NCBI GenBank assembly: GCA_965267415.1
Contig: OZ253955.1
Location: 3,390,902 to 3,454,901, forward strand
DNA length: 64,000 nucleotides
DNA from: Cyclobacteriaceae bacterium
GTDB taxonomy: Bacteria; Bacteroidota; Bacteroidia; Cytophagales; Cyclobacteriaceae
Reading direction: 5' to 3'
Shown: positions 3,473 to 43,078 of the stretch, in pieces
How positions within the stretch are numbered: the first letter of the stretch is position 1
How the letters are laid out: each line of letters begins with the position of its first letter
Position numbers and translations under genes: made by a program
The notes under the pieces: generated by a model
Seen by the model: only the letters and a program-made list of their open reading frames with translations
Database searches by the model: none
What the model was told of the DNA's origin: nothing

Positions 3473-4078
3473 CTATCTACGGATATCTGGCAATTCCCAA
3501 CCATGACGAAAGGCCAAAATCCTAAATGAACAGATAAATAGCACAGTTACAATGATTGTTATGTTCGAATAGACCTGGTAATTATCCAGTAAAATGTAAA
3601 GGACACCACCAGACAGACAGGTCAATGCATAGATCTCTTTTCTAAAAATTAGAGGGATCTCGTTGCAAACGATATCACGAATGACCCCTCCAAATACGGC
3701 AGAGACCATTCCCATCATGATGGCAATAACAGGTTGAACCCCAATGTTCAATGCTTTCTGCAAGCCAAGCACGGTGAATACCGCAATTCCTATGGTGTCG
3801 AACAGAAAGAATGTCCTACGAAGTTTTTGAACAACCCTGTGGATCAGGACCGACAAGGTGATTCCAACAGCTATTGCAATAAGGTAGTTGAGGTCATTCA
3901 TCCATCCTACCGGAGTACTTCCAATGAGAATGTCCCGAAGTGTCCCACCTCCAATGGCAGTAATGAAACCCACTGCGCTTACTCCAAAGAAATCAAGCTT
4001 CTTTTCCGAGGCAGTTAATGACCCACTGATGGCAAAAACCATCGTTCCCAGGATATCTATGACATATAGCAAATTCAC
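3473..4078 (-). CDS. Trimeric intracellular cation channel (TRIC/UPF0126) family membrane protein
   Basis: Duplicated FAISG...TAIGGGTLRD / DTIGIAVF...AVFGGVIRD repeats. Confidence 0.9.
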   Translation of the reverse strand: MNLLYVIDILGTMVFAISGSLTASEKKLDFFGVSAVGFITAIGGGTLRDILIGSTPVGWMNDLNYLIAIAVGITLSVLIHRVVQKLRRTFFLFDTIGIAVFTVLGLQKALNIGVQPVIAIMMGMVSAVFGGVIRDIVCNEIPLIFRKEIYALTCLSGGVLYILLDNYQVYSNITIIVTVLFICSFRILAFRHGWELPDIRR

Positions 4079-4093
4079 CGGACGAAAGTAGAA

Positions 4094-5029
4094 CTATTCT
4101 GTGAGTTGTATGAACTGGATGTTTCTTTGTAGACCCTTGAATTTGGTCCGTTTTACAGGAGACTTTTTGAAAATGGTGTTGAAGACTTCTTCTGTCATGT
4201 CTTCCCATTCACTGTTTTCCAAATGCTCCCATCCCTGGGGTTGGAACTTTGGTTCGTTATGAGGTTTGGCAAACCTGTTCCAGGGGCACACATCCTGACA
4301 TATGTCGCATCCAAAAGCCCACCCCTCCATCTGATTTTTGAATTCACTAGGAAGATCATCCTTTAATTCAATAGTGAGGTAGGAGATACACTTGCTGCCA
4401 TCTACCACATAAGGTTCGGGAATTGCATCCGTTGGACATGCATCCTGGCAGGCGGTACAAGTGCCGCAGTAGTCTTTCATCGGCCCGTCAGGAGTCAACT
4501 CCATATCGATGATCAACTCAGCGAGGAAGAAAAAGCTCCCCATCTCCCGGTTCAGTAATAGACTGTTTTTCCCAATCCATCCAAGCCCGCTTTTTGCTGC
4601 CCAGGCTCGTTCATGAACGGGTGCGGAATCAACAAAAGCCCGACCTTCAACAGCTCCAATTTCTTCGGTTATTTTTCTGGTTAATTCTTTCAGCTTCTTC
4701 TTGATGACGAAGTGATAATCCTGGCCGTAGGCATACTTCGCAATTTTAGGACCATTATTGTGCTCATGTATTTTGGAAGGGAAGTAGTTATAAATAAGTG
4801 AGACAACTGATTTAGCACCAGGCACCAACTTCCTCGGATCTAGTCTTTTATCAAAATTTTGTTCGAGGTACGCCATTTTACCATGGTAGTTGCGCTTGAG
4901 CCATTCTTCAAGCCTTGGAGCCTCTTCTCCCAGAAAATCAGCTTTGGCAATACCGCAGAAATCGAAACCCAGCTCGGTAGCGTATCTCTTCACTTTTTGG
5001 GTGTTTGTCTTAACTATGTCTGGGTCCAT
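4094..5029 (-). CDS. queG: tRNA epoxyqueuosine(34) reductase
   Basis: [13 protein letters not shown] and [12 protein letters not shown] Fe-S motifs; YAYGQDYH; FVDSAPV. Confidence 0.96.
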
Positions 5030-5038
5030 CGAATCACC

Positions 5039-5070
5039 TTCGGAAGTGAAGATAATTCATATTACGTTTG
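5039..5070 (+). promoter_or_regulatory. Bacteroidota sigma70-type promoter facing away from queG
   Basis: -7 element TACGTTTG (5063-5070) matches TAnnTTTG; TTCG at 5039-5042 lies 20 nt upstream. Confidence 0.6.
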
Positions 5071-5075
5071 ATCTA

Positions 5076-5169
5076 GAAACCCATAGCCGGAGTTCTAAAC
5101 TTAGATAAAGAGATAATTACCGCTGATAGTAGGGACCGATGGCCTGTCTGGAATGACAGGCCTTTTTTT
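5076..5169 (+). ncRNA. Candidate small RNA (~90 nt), opposite strand to both neighbours
   Basis: Lies between a consensus promoter and a plus-strand intrinsic terminator; no usable ORF; both flanking genes are on the minus strand. The 5' end is estimated. Confidence 0.55.
5141..5169 (+). terminator. Intrinsic terminator oriented for a plus-strand transcript
   Basis: GGCCTGTC-TGGAAT-GACAGGCC-TTTTTTT; no U-tract on the minus side. Confidence 0.85.
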
Positions 5170-5180
5170 ATTCTCTACGC

Positions 5181-6206
5181 CTAAAACAAGGTGCCTGATT
5201 GCCGGGGCGGAATAATGTTCAAATGCGTGTAAGCCAGCTCTGTCGCTTCCCGTCCACGTGAGGTTCTTTTGATATATCCTTCCTGGATCAGGAAAGGTTC
5301 ATACACTTCTTCGATGGTTTCAGCCTCCTCGCCACAGGCGGTAGCGATCGTACCAATACCTACAGGCCCACCCTTAAATTTGTTTATGATCGTGGAGAGG
5401 ATCCGGTTATCCATTTCGTCTAACCCGTGATCATCAACATTCAAAGCACTCAATGCCATCCTGGCAATTTCCAGGGTGATCGCCCCGTCACCTTTGATTT
5501 GAGCAAAATCCCTGGTTCTCCTCAACAGGTTGTTAGCAATCCGTGGAGTTCCTCTGCTTCTTCGGGCAATTTCGTAAGCAGCTTCTTCATCGATGATGGA
5601 ATTCAGAATATCTGCTGATCGGCCCACAATTGACGTAAGCAATTTTCCGTCGTAATATTCCAGCCTTGAATTTATACCAAAGCGAGCACGCAATGGAGCT
5701 GTCAGGAGACCTGATCGTGTGGTAGCACCAACCAGGGTGAATGGGTTAAGCTCAATTTGAACAGAACGGGCATTGGGCCCGGAATCGAGCATGATATCAA
5801 TGCGATAATCCTCCATGGCCGAGTACAGATACTCCTCAACCACCGGATTCAATCGATGGATCTCGTCAATGAATAGTACATCATGAGCCTCAAGGTTTGT
5901 AAGCAGACCAGCCAGCTCGCCAGCCTTATCAAGCACCGGCCCTGACGTGACCTTGATGTTGGCCCCCAACTCATTGGCGATGATATATGAGAGCGTGGTT
6001 TTGCCTAATCCAGGAGGGCCATGGAGTAGTACGTGATCAAGTGGTTCTGTTCGTTGTTTTGCGGCTTCTACAAATATTTTAAGATTTTCAACCACTTTAT
6101 CCTGACCGACAAAATCAGAAAACGAAAGTGGCCTGAGTGCCTTTTCGATCTCCTTGTCAGTCGAACTCAAACCTTCACTATCAGGCTGTAAGTAGTCTTC
6201 TCTCAT
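5181..6206 (-). CDS. ruvB: Holliday junction branch migration helicase RuvB
   Basis: GPPGLGKTT Walker [23 protein letters not shown]. Confidence 0.98.
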
Positions 6207-6276
6207 ATCCTTTCCAAATATAGTTGAACCTGAATTTGGAATTGAATTGAATTATCATTGCATTAAATCCTGACCG

Positions 6277-14097: not shown

Positions 14098-14128
14098 TTT
14101 GAATATTAGTACGTAAACAATATCTTTG
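14098..14128 (+). promoter_or_regulatory. Promoter of rplU-rpmA
   Basis: TTTG (14098-14101), 19 nt spacer, TATCTTTG (14121-14128). Confidence 0.8.
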
Positions 14129-14153: not shown

Positions 14154-14465
14154 ATGTACGTTATAGTAGACATTGCGGGAAAGCAGTTTAAGGCAGAAAA
14201 AGATAAGTTTTTATACGCTCCATTGCACGATGCAAAGGAAGGGTCAAAAGTGAACTTTGATAAAGTGCTACTTGTCGACGATGGAGGCAAAGTAAAGGTC
14301 GGAACACCTACCGTTAGTGGAGCGAAAGTTTCAGGTAAAGTGTTGGAGCATGTGAAGGATGACAAAGTGATCGTTTTCAAGAAAAAGCGTAGAAAAGGAT
14401 ACAAAGTGAAGAACGGCCATAGACAGCAATTCTCCAAAATCTTAATTGAAGACATTAAAGCTTAA
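14154..14465 (+). CDS. rplU: 50S ribosomal protein L21
   Basis: MYVIVDIAGKQFK...KKKRRKGYKVKNGHRQ. Confidence 0.98.
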   Translation: MYVIVDIAGKQFKAEKDKFLYAPLHDAKEGSKVNFDKVLLVDDGGKVKVGTPTVSGAKVSGKVLEHVKDDKVIVFKKKRRKGYKVKNGHRQQFSKILIEDIKA

Positions 14466-14471
14466 GAAACC

Positions 14472-14741
14472 ATGGCACATAAGAAAGGTGTAGGTAGCTC
14501 GAAAAACGGAAGAGAGTCGGAAAGTAAACGACTTGGCGTAAAGATCTATGGTGGTCAGAAGGCAGTTGCCGGAAACATCATTGTACGTCAAAGAGGAACC
14601 AAGCATCACCCTGGAAATAATGTTGGTCTTGGTAAGGATCATACATTGTTTGCACTTACCAACGGTGTTGTTAGATTCCAAAAAGGATACAAGAATCGAT
14701 CCTTTGTTCACGTAGAGCCAGTAGCTGAAACAGCTAAATAA
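14472..14741 (+). CDS. rpmA: 50S ribosomal protein L27
   Basis: [24 protein letters not shown]...RQRGTK. Confidence 0.98.
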
Positions 14742-14761: not shown

Positions 14762-14790
14762 GAAAAGGGGTTCATTTGAACCCCTTTTTT
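14762..14790. terminator. Bidirectional intrinsic terminator
   Basis: AAAAGGGGTTCA-TT-TGAACCCCTTTTTTT between convergent rpmA and the HNH gene. Confidence 0.85.
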
Positions 14791-14812: not shown

Positions 14813-15304
14813 TCAGGCCTTTGCAGGTTTTTTCCTGGGCCTTCCCGGAAGCACAGTGCCAGGCTTGAATCCATTCGAATACCTTTTCTTCCTGGTCTTC
14901 CACACCTTGAAGTTATTTTTATTCCCAACTTCAAATTGCCATTTCATGTGCTCGGATTTTGTCATCCATTCAAGATTTTCGAAATAATTATTCCGAGGAT
15001 TATTATCCTGATGGATGATCATCGTTTTGTTTTTGTCCTTATTAGGAACGAAAGCTTTTGCGGTTTCCTTGTGAGGATAAACCGTCCTTCTTTTCTTGTC
15101 GTCATCGATAAGGTCTAGGAAATAGCACTTACAGATTTTATTCCACCGTTGGCGCATAATTTTTCCTCGAAGCTTCATGTTAGTCTTGCTTCCTTTGTGC
15201 CACACCTTCCTGGTTTTGCTTCTGACTTTCCCTCGGTTTGAAATCTCGTAGTTAGAAAATCCCTTGATCGGACGCCACTCTTCTTCTTTTTTTTGGTCTG
15301 CCAT
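14813..15304 (-). CDS. NUMOD4 domain / HNH endonuclease-like protein with C-terminal AT-hook-like motif
   Basis: EEWRPIKGFSNYEISNRGKVRS (NUMOD4); HKETAKAF...HQDNNPRNNYFENLEWMTKSEH (HNH-like); PGRPRKK. ATG 15304 preferred over TTG 15322. Confidence 0.85.
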   Translation of the reverse strand: MADQKKEEEWRPIKGFSNYEISNRGKVRSKTRKVWHKGSKTNMKLRGKIMRQRWNKICKCYFLDLIDDDKKRRTVYPHKETAKAFVPNKDKNKTMIIHQDNNPRNNYFENLEWMTKSEHMKWQFEVGNKNNFKVWKTRKKRYSNGFKPGTVLPGRPRKKPAKA

Positions 15305-15421
15305 AAGTTTGCTTGTTTTCAATATAAATCTTTAACAAGCTGGCTCTTAATGAACATCCGAAAATACAACTTTTTTGGTTCTCAGGATGTTAAAAAGTCG
15401 ATTTTAAATTAACTCAGTAGA

Positions 15422-33084: not shown

Positions 33085-34479
33085 TTAGTTTACTTCGGTA
33101 TAGAAAACCCTCAATTTGATTCCTGAATTATTGAATATCGCTTGTTGAAGAATGGTATTAAAGGGACTTATCAGTACCAGATCATCTATTTGAATAGTAT
33201 CTGATTGAAAAGGCTCAATGAATATCACATCATCATTCCGCTGGAAATTGTTATACAGAAATTGGAAAAAAATTGTTGGATTAGCGATGTAATGGTCGTC
33301 GGTACTATTCAAGGCTCCAAGAATGGGATCATTATTTACAGCTCCTCCGGATACAGGCGATAAATAAGCTGCATCGTTCATTACAATGTTTGAGAAGGGA
33401 TCCTGTGCAACAGCCGGCCCGAAAATCCCTCCATCCTGAGTTCTGAAATAAAGCCTGAAGACATCAAGAGTGTCTCTTGATACAAATTCCTCATAATCAA
33501 ACTGTACTATAACAGAATTAATAAGGATGTTTGGATTTTCCTCAAAAAAGCTTCTTAGCGGACTCAACTCAAAAGTAGTTGTTAGCCCAGCAAGCGGATC
33601 TAAAACAGTTCTTCCGTCAGCTAGATTGAAATTCGTTTTTTCTTCTATTCCATCAAACAGCGACCCGGTGCGGTCCCTTGTAATATGACTGTAGGCAAGT
33701 CCGGTAGTGTTAAATGTAGCTCGATAAGAAGTATCAGGAGCGTTTCCTGACATATACAAAATAAGCTGTGTTTCAAGGTTACTCAAATCAACAGCTGTCA
33801 AACCTGTGCTACCGGCAGTAGGAACCAATCCCATATCTCTAAACCGGTAATTCAATAAGCGAAGCGTTGAATCTTCAACCACATTGCTTACCGTATTGAA
33901 GAACTCCTGACCAAATGCGTCATTCAATCGAACTCTGTAAACGGTATCACTTGAGTTGACCTCTTTATCGTAAGAACCAATGGTCCGAAGAGGAGTTTCG
34001 CTTTTACTTCCCAAATAAACTACAGTGCTGAGGAGTGTGTCAACCAGTTCAATTACATCAAATGCCAGCTGGCTGGACTCACGGAAAGGAATTAGTTCCG
34101 ATTGTCTTAGCTCCAGGTAGAGTGAATCATACTCAAGACTGTCTGTTGGGTCTGGGTTTGCGGAGGTCTGTTCCTGCACAGGAAGTATCCCACCTGTGAA
34201 TGCGTACTGGAAATAGCCTTCGGCTGTAACATTTCCTGTATTCAAATCTGTGAACGATCCAACAAGTACCCGGTTTTCATTATCTGTTCGAAGACTGTCA
34301 ATCCTTAAATTGGAGGAAGGCAAGTCAAACTCTATCAATTTGACATCAACTCCTGTATCCAGGTCGAATTCAGTCCCGAAATCATTGGCTGCATCGCAAC
34401 CTAAAAAAACCGGGATCAATGCGATTAATCCCGGTTTAATGAAATTTCTTAGCTTTTTCAAACTAGCCAACAAGCTCAT
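33085..34479 (-). CDS. DUF4270-like outer-membrane lipoprotein
   Basis: Lipobox FLGC after ATG 34479 (ORF-track start 34593 overlaps the upstream gene); conserved position between GT5 and glmS. Confidence 0.75.
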   Translation of the reverse strand: MSLLASLKKLRNFIKPGLIALIPVFLGCDAANDFGTEFDLDTGVDVKLIEFDLPSSNLRIDSLRTDNENRVLVGSFTDLNTGNVTAEGYFQYAFTGGILPVQEQTSANPDPTDSLEYDSLYLELRQSELIPFRESSQLAFDVIELVDTLLSTVVYLGSKSETPLRTIGSYDKEVNSSDTVYRVRLNDAFGQEFFNTVSNVVEDSTLRLLNYRFRDMGLVPTAGSTGLTAVDLSNLETQLILYMSGNAPDTSYRATFNTTGLAYSHITRDRTGSLFDGIEEKTNFNLADGRTVLDPLAGLTTTFELSPLRSFFEENPNILINSVIVQFDYEEFVSRDTLDVFRLYFRTQDGGIFGPAVAQDPFSNIVMNDAAYLSPVSGGAVNNDPILGALNSTDDHYIANPTIFFQFLYNNFQRNDDVIFIEPFQSDTIQIDDLVLISPFNTILQQAIFNNSGIKLRVFYTEVN

Positions 34480-35275
34480 TATATAAGTTGTAGTATGATT
34501 CTTCGAAATTCTCATCCTTCTCAATAGTCTCTGCTCGCTTATCATTCGACAGGTCAGCAATGAGCTTCTTGAAGCTTTCAGTAGACTCCTCATGCGCGTT
34601 GATCACTGCATCAGCATATTCCACGCCAACTTTGATGAACCCTTCGTAATCAGCCGTTTTTAGCGGATTCAGCATTTCATCATCAATATCTATCATCTTC
34701 ACTTTTTCCAACAGATCATCTCCGAACTTATGGGTGAATTTGTTATTGTATATTGTAAATACGGTCTTGGCGTCCTTGTAGATCGGATCGTTCTTATAAG
34801 TTGTCTTAGTGTATAAAGGAATTAAACTTGTCATCCAGTCATTGCAGTGAATGATATCTGGCGACCATCCCAACTTCTTAACAGTTTCCAACACTCCTTT
34901 GCAGAAGAAGATCGCTCGTTCGTCATTATCCTCAAAGAAGTTATCCTCCTTATCAAAGAATACAGATTTCCTGTAGAAATAATCTTCATTGTCAATGAAG
35001 TAGACTTGCAATTTTGCATTCGGGATGGATGCCACCTTTATAACAAGTGGTTTTTCCTCATCACCTACGGCAATGTTGATTCCTGATAATCTGACAACTT
35101 CATGGAGTCGGTTTTTTCGCTCATTGATGAGGCCGAACCTTGGAACTAAAATCCTAATCTCCATACCTCTTTCTTGCATCGCTTGTGGCAACCTTCTTAC
35201 AAACTCAGCCACTTCTGAAGTTCCCAGAAATGGATTGATCTCACTAGCCACGTAAAGGATCCTAATATTTGACAT
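34463..35275 (-). CDS. Glycogen/starch synthase N-terminal (GT5) domain protein, single domain
   Basis: LYVASEINPF, ILVPRFG, YFIDNEDYF, IIHCNDW, FTIYN; KTGGL motif absent. Confidence 0.85.
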   Translation of the reverse strand: MSNIRILYVASEINPFLGTSEVAEFVRRLPQAMQERGMEIRILVPRFGLINERKNRLHEVVRLSGINIAVGDEEKPLVIKVASIPNAKLQVYFIDNEDYFYRKSVFFDKEDNFFEDNDERAIFFCKGVLETVKKLGWSPDIIHCNDWMTSLIPLYTKTTYKNDPIYKDAKTVFTIYNNKFTHKFGDDLLEKVKMIDIDDEMLNPLKTADYEGFIKVGVEYADAVINAHEESTESFKKLIADLSNDKRAETIEKDENFEESYYNLYNELVG

Positions 35276-35390
35276 ATATTTTGTGAATTAAATTATTTCA
35301 GATGGGGATTGTAAAAAATGAGGACAAAAGTACCATATTTTTGGTTTATTATCAACGTATTCAATAAGTTAAGTGCTTAAACTACAGGGT

Positions 35391-41747: not shown

Positions 41748-42911
41748 CTAATCCTCAGCCGAAATTTCCATCGAAACCTGATTGCTTTCCAGGCTGCTTG
41801 AAAAATAAATCAAGGCAAAAGGAATGAGGAAAAATGCCACGAGGATGTAAGCAAATCCTGCAATTCGCAACTGAAGGGTAAACGAACCAAGCTTCCTTGC
41901 AAGGAAAACGGGCAGGGAACGCAGAAACGGAATGAAAAGAAAAATCAGGACACCAATAAGGTTAAATAGCAGATGTACAATGGCCAGGTTGATTGCTGCT
42001 TCTGACTGGAAGGTTGCAGCAAGTAGGGCTGTAATTGTGGTTCCAATGTTAGCGCCTAGGATGAACTGAAAAGCTCTTTTCAATTTGACTTTACTTGTCG
42101 CTACTAATGGAACGATAAGTGATGTTGTTAATGAACTGGATTGAATAGCAGACGTCAATAATAGCCCCCATCCAAATGATAAAAATGTATTCTTAAATAC
42201 AGTGGTCTGAAAACGATCCCTGGCTCTTCCAATCAGAAGGTTGTAAATAAGCTTGGATAAGAACTTTATGCTATAGAACAAAAGGGAGAAAGCAAGGATG
42301 AGCGTAACAACTGCTCCAAGGTTGCTGATCAGCCAATTATTGAGCCCGTTGAATAGAGAGCCGAATCCAAGTCCCGATGTTCCAACAGTTTCAACAGAGC
42401 TTACTCCAATCCAGGAAGTTATCGTCATGCTTGCCCGTTCCAAAATATGATAAGCTGACTCCAGTGGAAAAAGGATCAGCACCATCAGAATATTGAAGAA
42501 GTCATGGACCGTTCCTGCAGAAACTGCTTTACGAAACTCACCTGATTTAGTGATATAACCCATCGCCACAATCGTACTTGTGAGCGTAGTGCCAATATTT
42601 GCCCCCAATATGATCGGAATAGCTCCTTGAAGACTTAATGTTCCGGAGGCAACAGCAGCTACAGCAATTGTAGTAGTAGTGGAACTGCTTTGCAGAATTG
42701 CAGTGGATAGTAATCCAATGAACAGGCCAATAAACGGATTTCGGGTTGCACTGATAGCATAATCAGCAAAATCACGACCCAATGAAGTGATCGAACCGCC
42801 TATAAGTTGGATTGAAAATAGAAAAGTAAAGACAGAAAGCCCGATCGCGATCGCATTTACATACGCAGGGTAGTTATTCTTTGTCTGGCTGCTTAAGTCG
42901 TTAACTGTCAC
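41748..42911 (-). CDS. Na/Pi cotransporter family protein
   Basis: Two repeats QSSSTTT...GANIGTT and QSSSLTT...GANIGTT; -7 TAGCTTTG at 42937-44. Confidence 0.92.
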   Translation of the reverse strand: MTVNDLSSQTKNNYPAYVNAIAIGLSVFTFLFSIQLIGGSITSLGRDFADYAISATRNPFIGLFIGLLSTAILQSSSTTTTIAVAAVASGTLSLQGAIPIILGANIGTTLTSTIVAMGYITKSGEFRKAVSAGTVHDFFNILMVLILFPLESAYHILERASMTITSWIGVSSVETVGTSGLGFGSLFNGLNNWLISNLGAVVTLILAFSLLFYSIKFLSKLIYNLLIGRARDRFQTTVFKNTFLSFGWGLLLTSAIQSSSLTTSLIVPLVATSKVKLKRAFQFILGANIGTTITALLAATFQSEAAINLAIVHLLFNLIGVLIFLFIPFLRSLPVFLARKLGSFTLQLRIAGFAYILVAFFLIPFALIYFSSSLESNQVSMEISAED

Positions 42912-43078
42912 TTACTTTGAGTGTGAAAGAAAGCGCAAAGCTATAAGAATAAGCCAGACTGTTACGATTGAATTCATGAAACAATTGTTATGAATTACCA
43001 CTAGTAGGACTGCACCAGTGTTAACGAAAACTTAACATTGCTACCTATAATTATTGATAGTTTTGCTGGGCCTGTAAT

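Follow-up and report, generated by a model that had tools for sequence, protein, structure and literature searches.

The 151-nt gap between ruvB and queG (5030-5180) in the genome of an uncultured Cytophagales very probably holds, as judged from its sequence, the gene of a non-coding RNA of about 95 nt, which lies on the plus strand and has its own Bacteroidota-type promoter and intrinsic terminator. All positions given without a locus name refer to the window, that is, the whole stretch of 64,000 nucleotides that was analyzed. We favor, with a probability of roughly 55%, the joint reading that 5075-5169 (+) is an independently transcribed non-coding RNA, that it tunes queG in cis or uncouples it from the upstream gene, that its conserved core is functional, and that it could possibly reach targets in trans as well. 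We infer the transcription of this candidate RNA, its exact 5′ end, and its effect on queG.

Organization of the ruvB–queG gap

Both neighboring genes are encoded on the minus strand, and the gap between them contains a set of plus-strand signals. The features of the locus are as follows.

4094-5029, minus: queG (epoxyqueuosine reductase), recognized by Pfam QueG_DUF1730 and Fer4_16 and by named homologues
5031-5058, minus: queG-leader hairpin GAAUUAUCUUC-ACUUCC-GAAGGUGAUUC, 11 bp, ending 1 nt before the AUG
5039-5042, plus: -33-like element TTCG, one mismatch to TTTG, with a 20-nt spacer to the -7 box
5046-5060: conserved promoter spacer GTGAAGATAATTCAT, from the alignment of 11 loci
5063-5070, plus: -7 box TACGTTTG, consensus TAnnTTTG
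5075-5169, plus: predicted non-coding RNA of about 95 nt, start inferred from the position of the -7 box
5075-5106, plus: variable 5′ domain of the RNA
5113-5137, plus: conserved core ATAATTACCGC-TGATA-GTAGGGACC, predicted to be mostly unpaired
5141-5162, plus: terminator stem-loop GGCCTGTC-TGGAAT-GACAGGCC, 8 bp, 6 of them G-C
5163-5169, plus: U-tract, T7
5181-6206, minus: ruvB, recognized by Pfam RuvB_N/AAA_lid_4/RuvB_C and by named homologues; convergent with the candidate RNA
6215-6222, minus: promoter-like TATATTTG of ruvB

An earlier note on this DNA had pointed to a perfect plus-strand -7 element at 5063-5070 with a TTCG 20 nt upstream, and both elements were found there. The 8-bp GC-rich hairpin with 7 T that it described is also present, and the U-tract does serve the plus strand only; the minus strand after the stem reads AUCGGUCCCUAC and has no U-tract. 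Thus, the hairpin cannot act as a classical terminator of ruvB, and ruvB has no terminator in its own orientation. A terminator of ruvB, or a bidirectional one, would carry a U-tract on the ruvB strand; none is found there, and C·A mismatches weaken the stem on that strand in 9 of the 11 loci compared. In addition, the predicted RNA converges on the 3′ end of the minus-strand ruvB (5181-6206), as the same note had said, and its view that the RNA has no usable ORF agrees with our result that the longest ORF inside 5075-5169 has 5 codons. Reading the sequences of the predicted RNAs of the 11 loci, we found no ORF common to them. Folding of the full-length predicted RNA gave no exceptional stability in the window (z = -1.5), and the z-score of the whole RNA ranges from -0.2 to -3.4 among five homologues.

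Intergenic sRNAs of Bacteroides have been defined by a transcription start site (TSS) and an intrinsic terminator, and a high-confidence sRNA of the Bacteroidota is one with its own mapped TSS, an intrinsic terminator, a length of 30-500 nt, no coding potential, and a stable structure (PMC7366714). The candidate has a rho-independent 3′ terminator on its own strand, and, with predicted lengths of 93-106 nt and a longest ORF of 5 codons in the window copy, it falls within 30-500 nt and lacks coding potential. The earlier note had also called for a comparison with Rfam. No family of Rfam 15 matched at the gathering score in the whole window, and none matched at E ≤ 10 in 4950-5260 on either strand. 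The families searched included the preQ1-I, preQ1-II, and preQ1-III riboswitches and the Bacteroidetes motifs; since there was no match on either strand even at E ≤ 10, preQ1 riboswitches are ruled out. The window was found only in sequencing runs of metagenomic DNA; it is absent from RNA-labelled runs under the same label, and a search for RNA runs containing the related loci L081 or L002 gave none.

The 8-mer AGATAATT (AATTATCT on the queG strand) occurs twice in the gap, once in the promoter spacer (5050-5057) and once at the start of the core (5111-5118). This repeat is kept in most, though not all, of the relatives.

Promoter and terminator signals in the window

By its number of copies alone, the 8-mer TAnnTTTG does not exceed the chance level: the window has 34, versus 52 expected. 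Sixteen of the 34 copies fall in the non-coding 11% of the window, and 10 of these 16 lie 9-71 nt upstream of the start of a gene on the same strand. Meanwhile, 11 strict terminators (hairpin plus T-tract) were found in the window, against 0.75 ± 0.62 expected from Markov simulations, and most of them are located just 3′ of a gene with matching direction. The terminator at 5141-5162 (+) is the sole intergenic one that opposes both of its neighbors and has no T-tract on the other strand.

The rplU-rpmA operon (14154-14741, +) illustrates how the host uses these signals. It has a full promoter of the form TTTG-N19-TATCTTTG at 14098-14128 and a terminator hairpin at 14764-14787, the latter with T-tracts on both strands, so that it also serves the convergent gene at 14813-15322. 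Because this operon carries both, TTTG/-7 promoters and hairpin-plus-T terminators can be taken as signals used by the host.

Perfect -7 boxes without a gene close downstream were also observed in two long gaps, at 35325-35332 (minus) in the gap 34409-35390 and at 42936-42943 (minus) in the gap 42564-43078. A strict minus-strand terminator is located at 34409-34435. These two gaps may contain further unannotated transcripts or long leaders.

Distribution and synteny of the element

The window is derived from an uncultured Cytophagales, and its element-bearing relatives are uncultured marine Cytophagales. The QueG protein of the window shares no more than 79-80% identity with anything in the collections (Ekhidna, Marinoscillum, and Cyclobacteriaceae and Roseivirgaceae MAGs). 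The same element of about 150 bp was found directly upstream of queG in ten other loci (L002, L004, L018, L081-L085, L087, and L088). Three of them (L002, L004, and L018) are the 3 of 80 reference-genome queG loci that have a homologous spacer; L081 is the single further locus that a metagenome scan gave with the 20-nt core, again adjoining queG; and the other six were obtained by looking up QueG proteins with the N-terminus MD..IVKTNTQ. All counts out of 11 loci refer to the window plus these ten relatives. The earlier note had stated that a lack of conservation would speak against the RNA; on the contrary, the element is present in ten further genomes.

On the other side of the element there is a gene for a Cu/Zn-superoxide-dismutase-like lipoprotein (Sod_Cu) in 10 of the 10 relatives and ruvB in the window; in L018, L087, and L088, ruvB lies further upstream, beyond Sod_Cu. 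Since all ten relatives have Sod_Cu at this place, the window has lost the Sod_Cu gene and kept the whole element. Thus, across the 11 loci the element is constant beside queG while its other neighbor varies. The earlier expectation that the element would be conserved independently of its flanking genes therefore holds on one side only: the neighbor on the far side changes between ruvB and Sod_Cu, but the element is always found with queG. A covariance model searched over the window and 88 loci gave no second copy and no copy away from queG. A looser core pattern gave 4 matches in viral contigs, all without the hairpin, and we judged these to be chance matches rather than copies of the element.

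The element is restricted to a narrow and patchy set of genomes. In the tree of QueG proteins, seven element loci formed one clade, and the window, L087, and L088 stood apart; the tree is star-like and too poorly resolved to separate an ancient origin with losses from transfer. The locus with the closest QueG (L089, P0072) has ruvB and queG only 4 nt apart (2456-2464), without Sod_Cu or the element, so the ruvB–queG junction appears to have been remodelled several times within a narrow group. More generally, where relatives lack the element, 4 to about 30 nt separate queG from the upstream gene, with which it must be co-transcribed in these genomes.

Conservation and strand of the structures

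The -7 box reads TACGTTTG or TAGGTTTG in 10 of the 11 loci and TAAGTTTA in L087. At the aligned -33 position, a perfect TTTG occurs in 8 of 11 loci, TTCG in the window, and TTCT in L088, and the element is absent in L087; the spacing between the two positions is always 20 nt. The promoter of L087 is thus poor, and the -33 element of the window itself is imperfect. In most relatives, the promoter spacer is a 17-bp palindrome, AGTGAA-GATAA-TTCACT (for instance, L085:2470-2486), of which 5046-5060 in the window is a copy with one mismatch. This palindrome may be an operator or other regulator binding site, or a leader hairpin; as a regulon motif it shows no excess elsewhere in the window.

In Flavobacterium psychrophilum, a transcriptome map placed the -7 box at -12 to -5 (PMC9723704), and we used this rule to predict the +1 position of the RNA. 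The predicted RNA length is then 93-106 nt across the 11 loci. The terminator hairpin is followed by T6-T7 in all 11, and the hairpin energies of these loci add up to -137.5 kcal/mol in the plus orientation versus -101.8 kcal/mol in the other one. The hairpin has 14 G·U pairs in the plus orientation and 0 in the other, each of them being a C·A mismatch on the queG strand. After realignment with the covariance model, 93% of the cells in the stem are paired, with compensatory double changes in 4 of the 8 pairs, and none of 500 column shuffles reached the observed covariation values.

The 5′ domain has diverged beyond alignment across the 11 loci, with AAAyCCCATAGCC common to the window and L087. 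Its summed energy over the 11 loci is also lower in the plus orientation (-63.6 versus -36.2 kcal/mol in the other), and most relatives have a stem-loop that starts exactly at the predicted +1. Two runs within the core at 5113-5137 are invariant in the 11 genomes, one of 11 nt (ATAATTACCGC) and one of 7 nt (GTAGGGA). In queG, third codon positions are saturated, with 4.7% of them invariant, and the longest invariant run within 900 nt of the CDS is 5. A small hairpin inside the core was also suggested by RNAalifold and was rejected: all of its pairs are invariant in the five sequences folded, and a U-to-C change in L087 and L088 breaks one plus-strand pair.

Some positions are fixed and others vary freely, and the stem shows compensatory changes, a pattern that marks selection on a candidate RNA gene and differs from what a decaying remnant would show. 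Furthermore, the promoter, terminator, and core conservation in 11 genomes, together with the strand-specific G·U pairs, strongly supports the proposal of the earlier note that the gap encodes a putative unannotated plus-strand sRNA with its own promoter and terminator.

Relation to queG

It had been proposed that the RNA diverges from the queG promoter. We found a different arrangement: only 10 nt separate the beginning of the -33 element from the start codon of queG, the RNA is predicted to start 46 nt upstream of this ATG, and between the ATG and the RNA promoter there is no room for a separate divergent queG promoter. Because its promoter starts 10 nt from the ATG, the RNA would instead be antisense to the queG leader, and control of queG in cis is, for this reason, its likeliest role. 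As in cis-antisense RNAs of the DonS type, the candidate is encoded opposite to its putative target and overlaps the upstream region of that gene, running away from the ATG.

In the mechanism that we propose, a sigma-A type promoter (TTCG, 20 nt, TACGTTTG) would transcribe the RNA, and the 8-bp hairpin with U7 would end it. The promoter would lie inside the DNA that encodes the queG leader. The queG transcript would either be a read-through product from ruvB or Sod_Cu or start within the spacer. Read-through from either gene is plausible because the hairpin has no U-tract in the queG direction; as for an alternative start, our promoter search on the queG strand gave nothing beyond one -7-like box at the border of the core, weak and semi-conserved, which might serve this purpose. 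The queG mRNA would thus start inside or beyond the RNA gene or read through from upstream, so it would be complementary to part or all of the RNA, and polymerases on the opposite strands would meet head-on. Since the transcripts would be complementary and the polymerases would collide whichever start queG uses, a cis-antisense regulator of queG is favored. Such an RNA might tune queG or uncouple it from the upstream gene, by head-on transcription interference or by RNA-RNA pairing with the queG leader.

The invariant 25-nt core 5′ of the terminator would be the functional heart of the RNA, as a pairing site or a protein-binding site, and it could reach trans targets. Antisense complementarity alone does not explain these invariant 25 nt. 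The core may act as a seed on trans targets, bind a protein, or be under double constraint with a signal on the queG strand.

In L018, ACA (L018:2998-3000) is found where the other loci have the queG ATG. Translation of the QueG protein of L018 probably starts at a GTG five codons downstream, and for this reason the leader beside the RNA promoter would be free of coding constraint in this locus.

Possible origin from mscL

In four related loci (L003, L006, L012, and L015), a 130-aa mscL gene with the orientation of the RNA immediately precedes queG; in L015 (2481-2921) it stands between Sod_Cu and queG. With the covariance model of the RNA, the terminators of mscL gave matches of 25 bits (E = 4e-4) in L015 and 21 bits (E = 0.006) in L012. 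The stems of these terminators are homologous to that of the RNA, AGCCTG…CAGGCT in L015 and AGCCTGTC…GATAGGTT in L012, each followed by T's, and the mscL terminator of L015 abuts the Sod_Cu stop codon, as the terminator of the RNA does. In addition, AAAGATAATTACC of the RNA aligns in L015 with the final mscL codons and stop, AAA AAA TAA TTTCC. No residual mscL coding similarity was found in the element-bearing loci, homology between the promoters of the RNA and of mscL could not be demonstrated, and the genomes that carry mscL do not share a conserved form of the equivalent 3′ UTR.

Sister genomes have mscL in the same slot and on the same strand, with a homologous terminator in L015 and L012. 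In the simplest reading, the RNA gene may thus descend from an mscL transcription unit whose coding region was deleted, with the direction of this change given by parsimony only. A fuller scenario can be drawn, in which the mscL coding region was lost while promoter and terminator were kept, the former 3′ UTR became the invariant segment, and the resulting 95-nt RNA came to control queG in antisense and perhaps genes in trans. We put this scenario forward tentatively, as the less probable course of events.

Alternative explanations

The mscL genes in the same slot and on the same strand of L003, L006, L012, and L015, two of which (L015 and L012) have terminators that match the RNA model, would also suit a decaying relic, in which promoter and terminator are left over from a deleted mscL and are perhaps still transcribed but without function. 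However, the core, the -7 box, and a compensating stem were kept while nearby bases and the silent sites of queG diverged to saturation, and the complete unit is still present in the window, where the Sod_Cu gene is gone. The loss of all mscL coding similarity from the element loci and the lack of a conserved equivalent of the 3′ UTR among mscL-bearing genomes do not fit a relic either, and we regard it as very doubtful. The account that needs no plus-strand RNA of consequence assigns the conserved sequences to queG, for which they would provide promoter, operator, and structured leader, while the hairpin would stabilize or end the upstream mRNA. The queG strand indeed carries signals of its own. 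The fold of the gap on this strand is unusually stable in the window (z = -4.3), and the hairpin at 5031-5058 that abuts the queG AUG is strand-specific (-12.6 kcal/mol on the queG strand versus -5.5 on the other), so the conservation near queG may in part be due to functions of the queG strand. This hairpin overlaps the -33 position of the RNA, where the window and L088 have no TTTG; L088 has a similar hairpin, and most relatives have only a short palindrome in the leader. Furthermore, the -7-like box of the queG strand reaches into the end of the core (TATCTTTG in L087, 4-5 of 6 matches in the others), and the motif AATTATCT occurs twice on this strand. Nevertheless, on the queG strand the terminator hairpin has C·A mismatches in 9 of 11 genomes and a U-tract in none of the 11 loci, and neither a preQ1 riboswitch nor any other Rfam family matched. 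It would also have to be coincidence that the -33 and -7 elements of the plus strand keep a fixed spacing, that the terminator follows at a constant distance of 93-106 nt, and that a stem-loop with plus-strand G·U pairs stands at +1. An explanation by queG-strand signals only is thus quite improbable.

A plus-strand RNA might also be made as described and pair through its core with mRNAs elsewhere, its place beside queG being inherited synteny. The core is seed-like, as it is predicted to be mostly unpaired and adjoins the terminator, and GibS of Bacteroides acts through a conserved single-stranded seed (PMC7366714). Target prediction over the 56 genes of the 64-kb window gave a borderline best match inside a CDS, namely codons 13-22 (4013-4041, minus) of the UPF0126/Gly_transporter gene just downstream of queG. 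For the window and for L081, the duplex of this site with the core has an energy of -25.8 kcal/mol, about 3.6 sd lower than that of shuffled sites. However, this site lies deep in the CDS and within a conserved protein motif, L002, L083, and L088 show weak pairing there (about 1-2 sd), and over all window genes the core reaches only the 5th percentile of shuffled seeds. The element was not found away from queG, and the RNA would be complementary to the queG leader whatever else it does. A purely trans-acting sRNA therefore seems unlikely to us, and the site at 4013-4041 is a possible trans target that we treat as a lead only. For the favored RNA that acts on queG in cis, an additional trans role of the invariant segment is possible.

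Comparison with known systems

Beyond gut Bacteroides and some flavobacteria, the Bacteroidota have, to our knowledge, few described regulatory RNAs. A literature search for queG together with sRNA or antisense gave nothing relevant, and we found no description of a regulatory RNA for marine Cytophagales or for the control of queuosine tRNA modification in Bacteroidota. The cis-antisense candidate described here is credible as a new small RNA; its kind is ordinary, and it changes no general picture. If expressed, it would be a small and well-delimited sRNA case, clearly supported by strand-specific comparison between genomes and plausibly derived from a degraded gene, useful for the annotation of sRNAs in metagenome-assembled genomes and for the question of how new sRNA genes arise.

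For enterobacterial sRNAs, an origin from degraded protein-coding genes or former 3′ UTRs has been described. The candidate resembles such gene-remnant sRNAs in that homology links its 3′ segment and terminator to the 3′ UTR and terminator of mscL. It differs from them in that the direction from mscL to RNA comes from parsimony only, and homology of the promoters could not be shown.

With GibS of B. thetaiotaomicron and Rfp18 of Flavobacterium psychrophilum, the candidate shares a predicted sigma-A promoter with TAnnTTTG, an intrinsic terminator, the lack of an ORF, a conserved segment that is predicted to be unpaired, and conservation restricted to a lineage. It is not homologous to them, as there is no Rfam match, and, unlike them, it necessarily overlaps the leader of its neighbor in antisense.

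The closest parallel in layout is given by the cis-antisense RNAs of the DonS type in Bacteroides, which are 78-128 nt long and encoded divergently to the susC-like gene that they repress (PMC7366714). A sequence relationship is not expected. The candidate differs from DonS in its partner, since queG belongs to tRNA queuosine synthesis and the neighbors (queG, ruvB or Sod_Cu, and UPF0126) show no association with susC/susD polysaccharide utilization; in its host, a marine Cytophagales; and in its invariant inner segment, which is not a described feature of DonS. However, both belong to the same phylum and are of similar size, and the candidate, like DonS, has its own (here predicted) promoter, is encoded opposite to the adjacent gene, and overlaps the upstream or leader region of this gene. 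By analogy with DonS, the effect of the candidate RNA on the adjacent queG would be expected to be negative.
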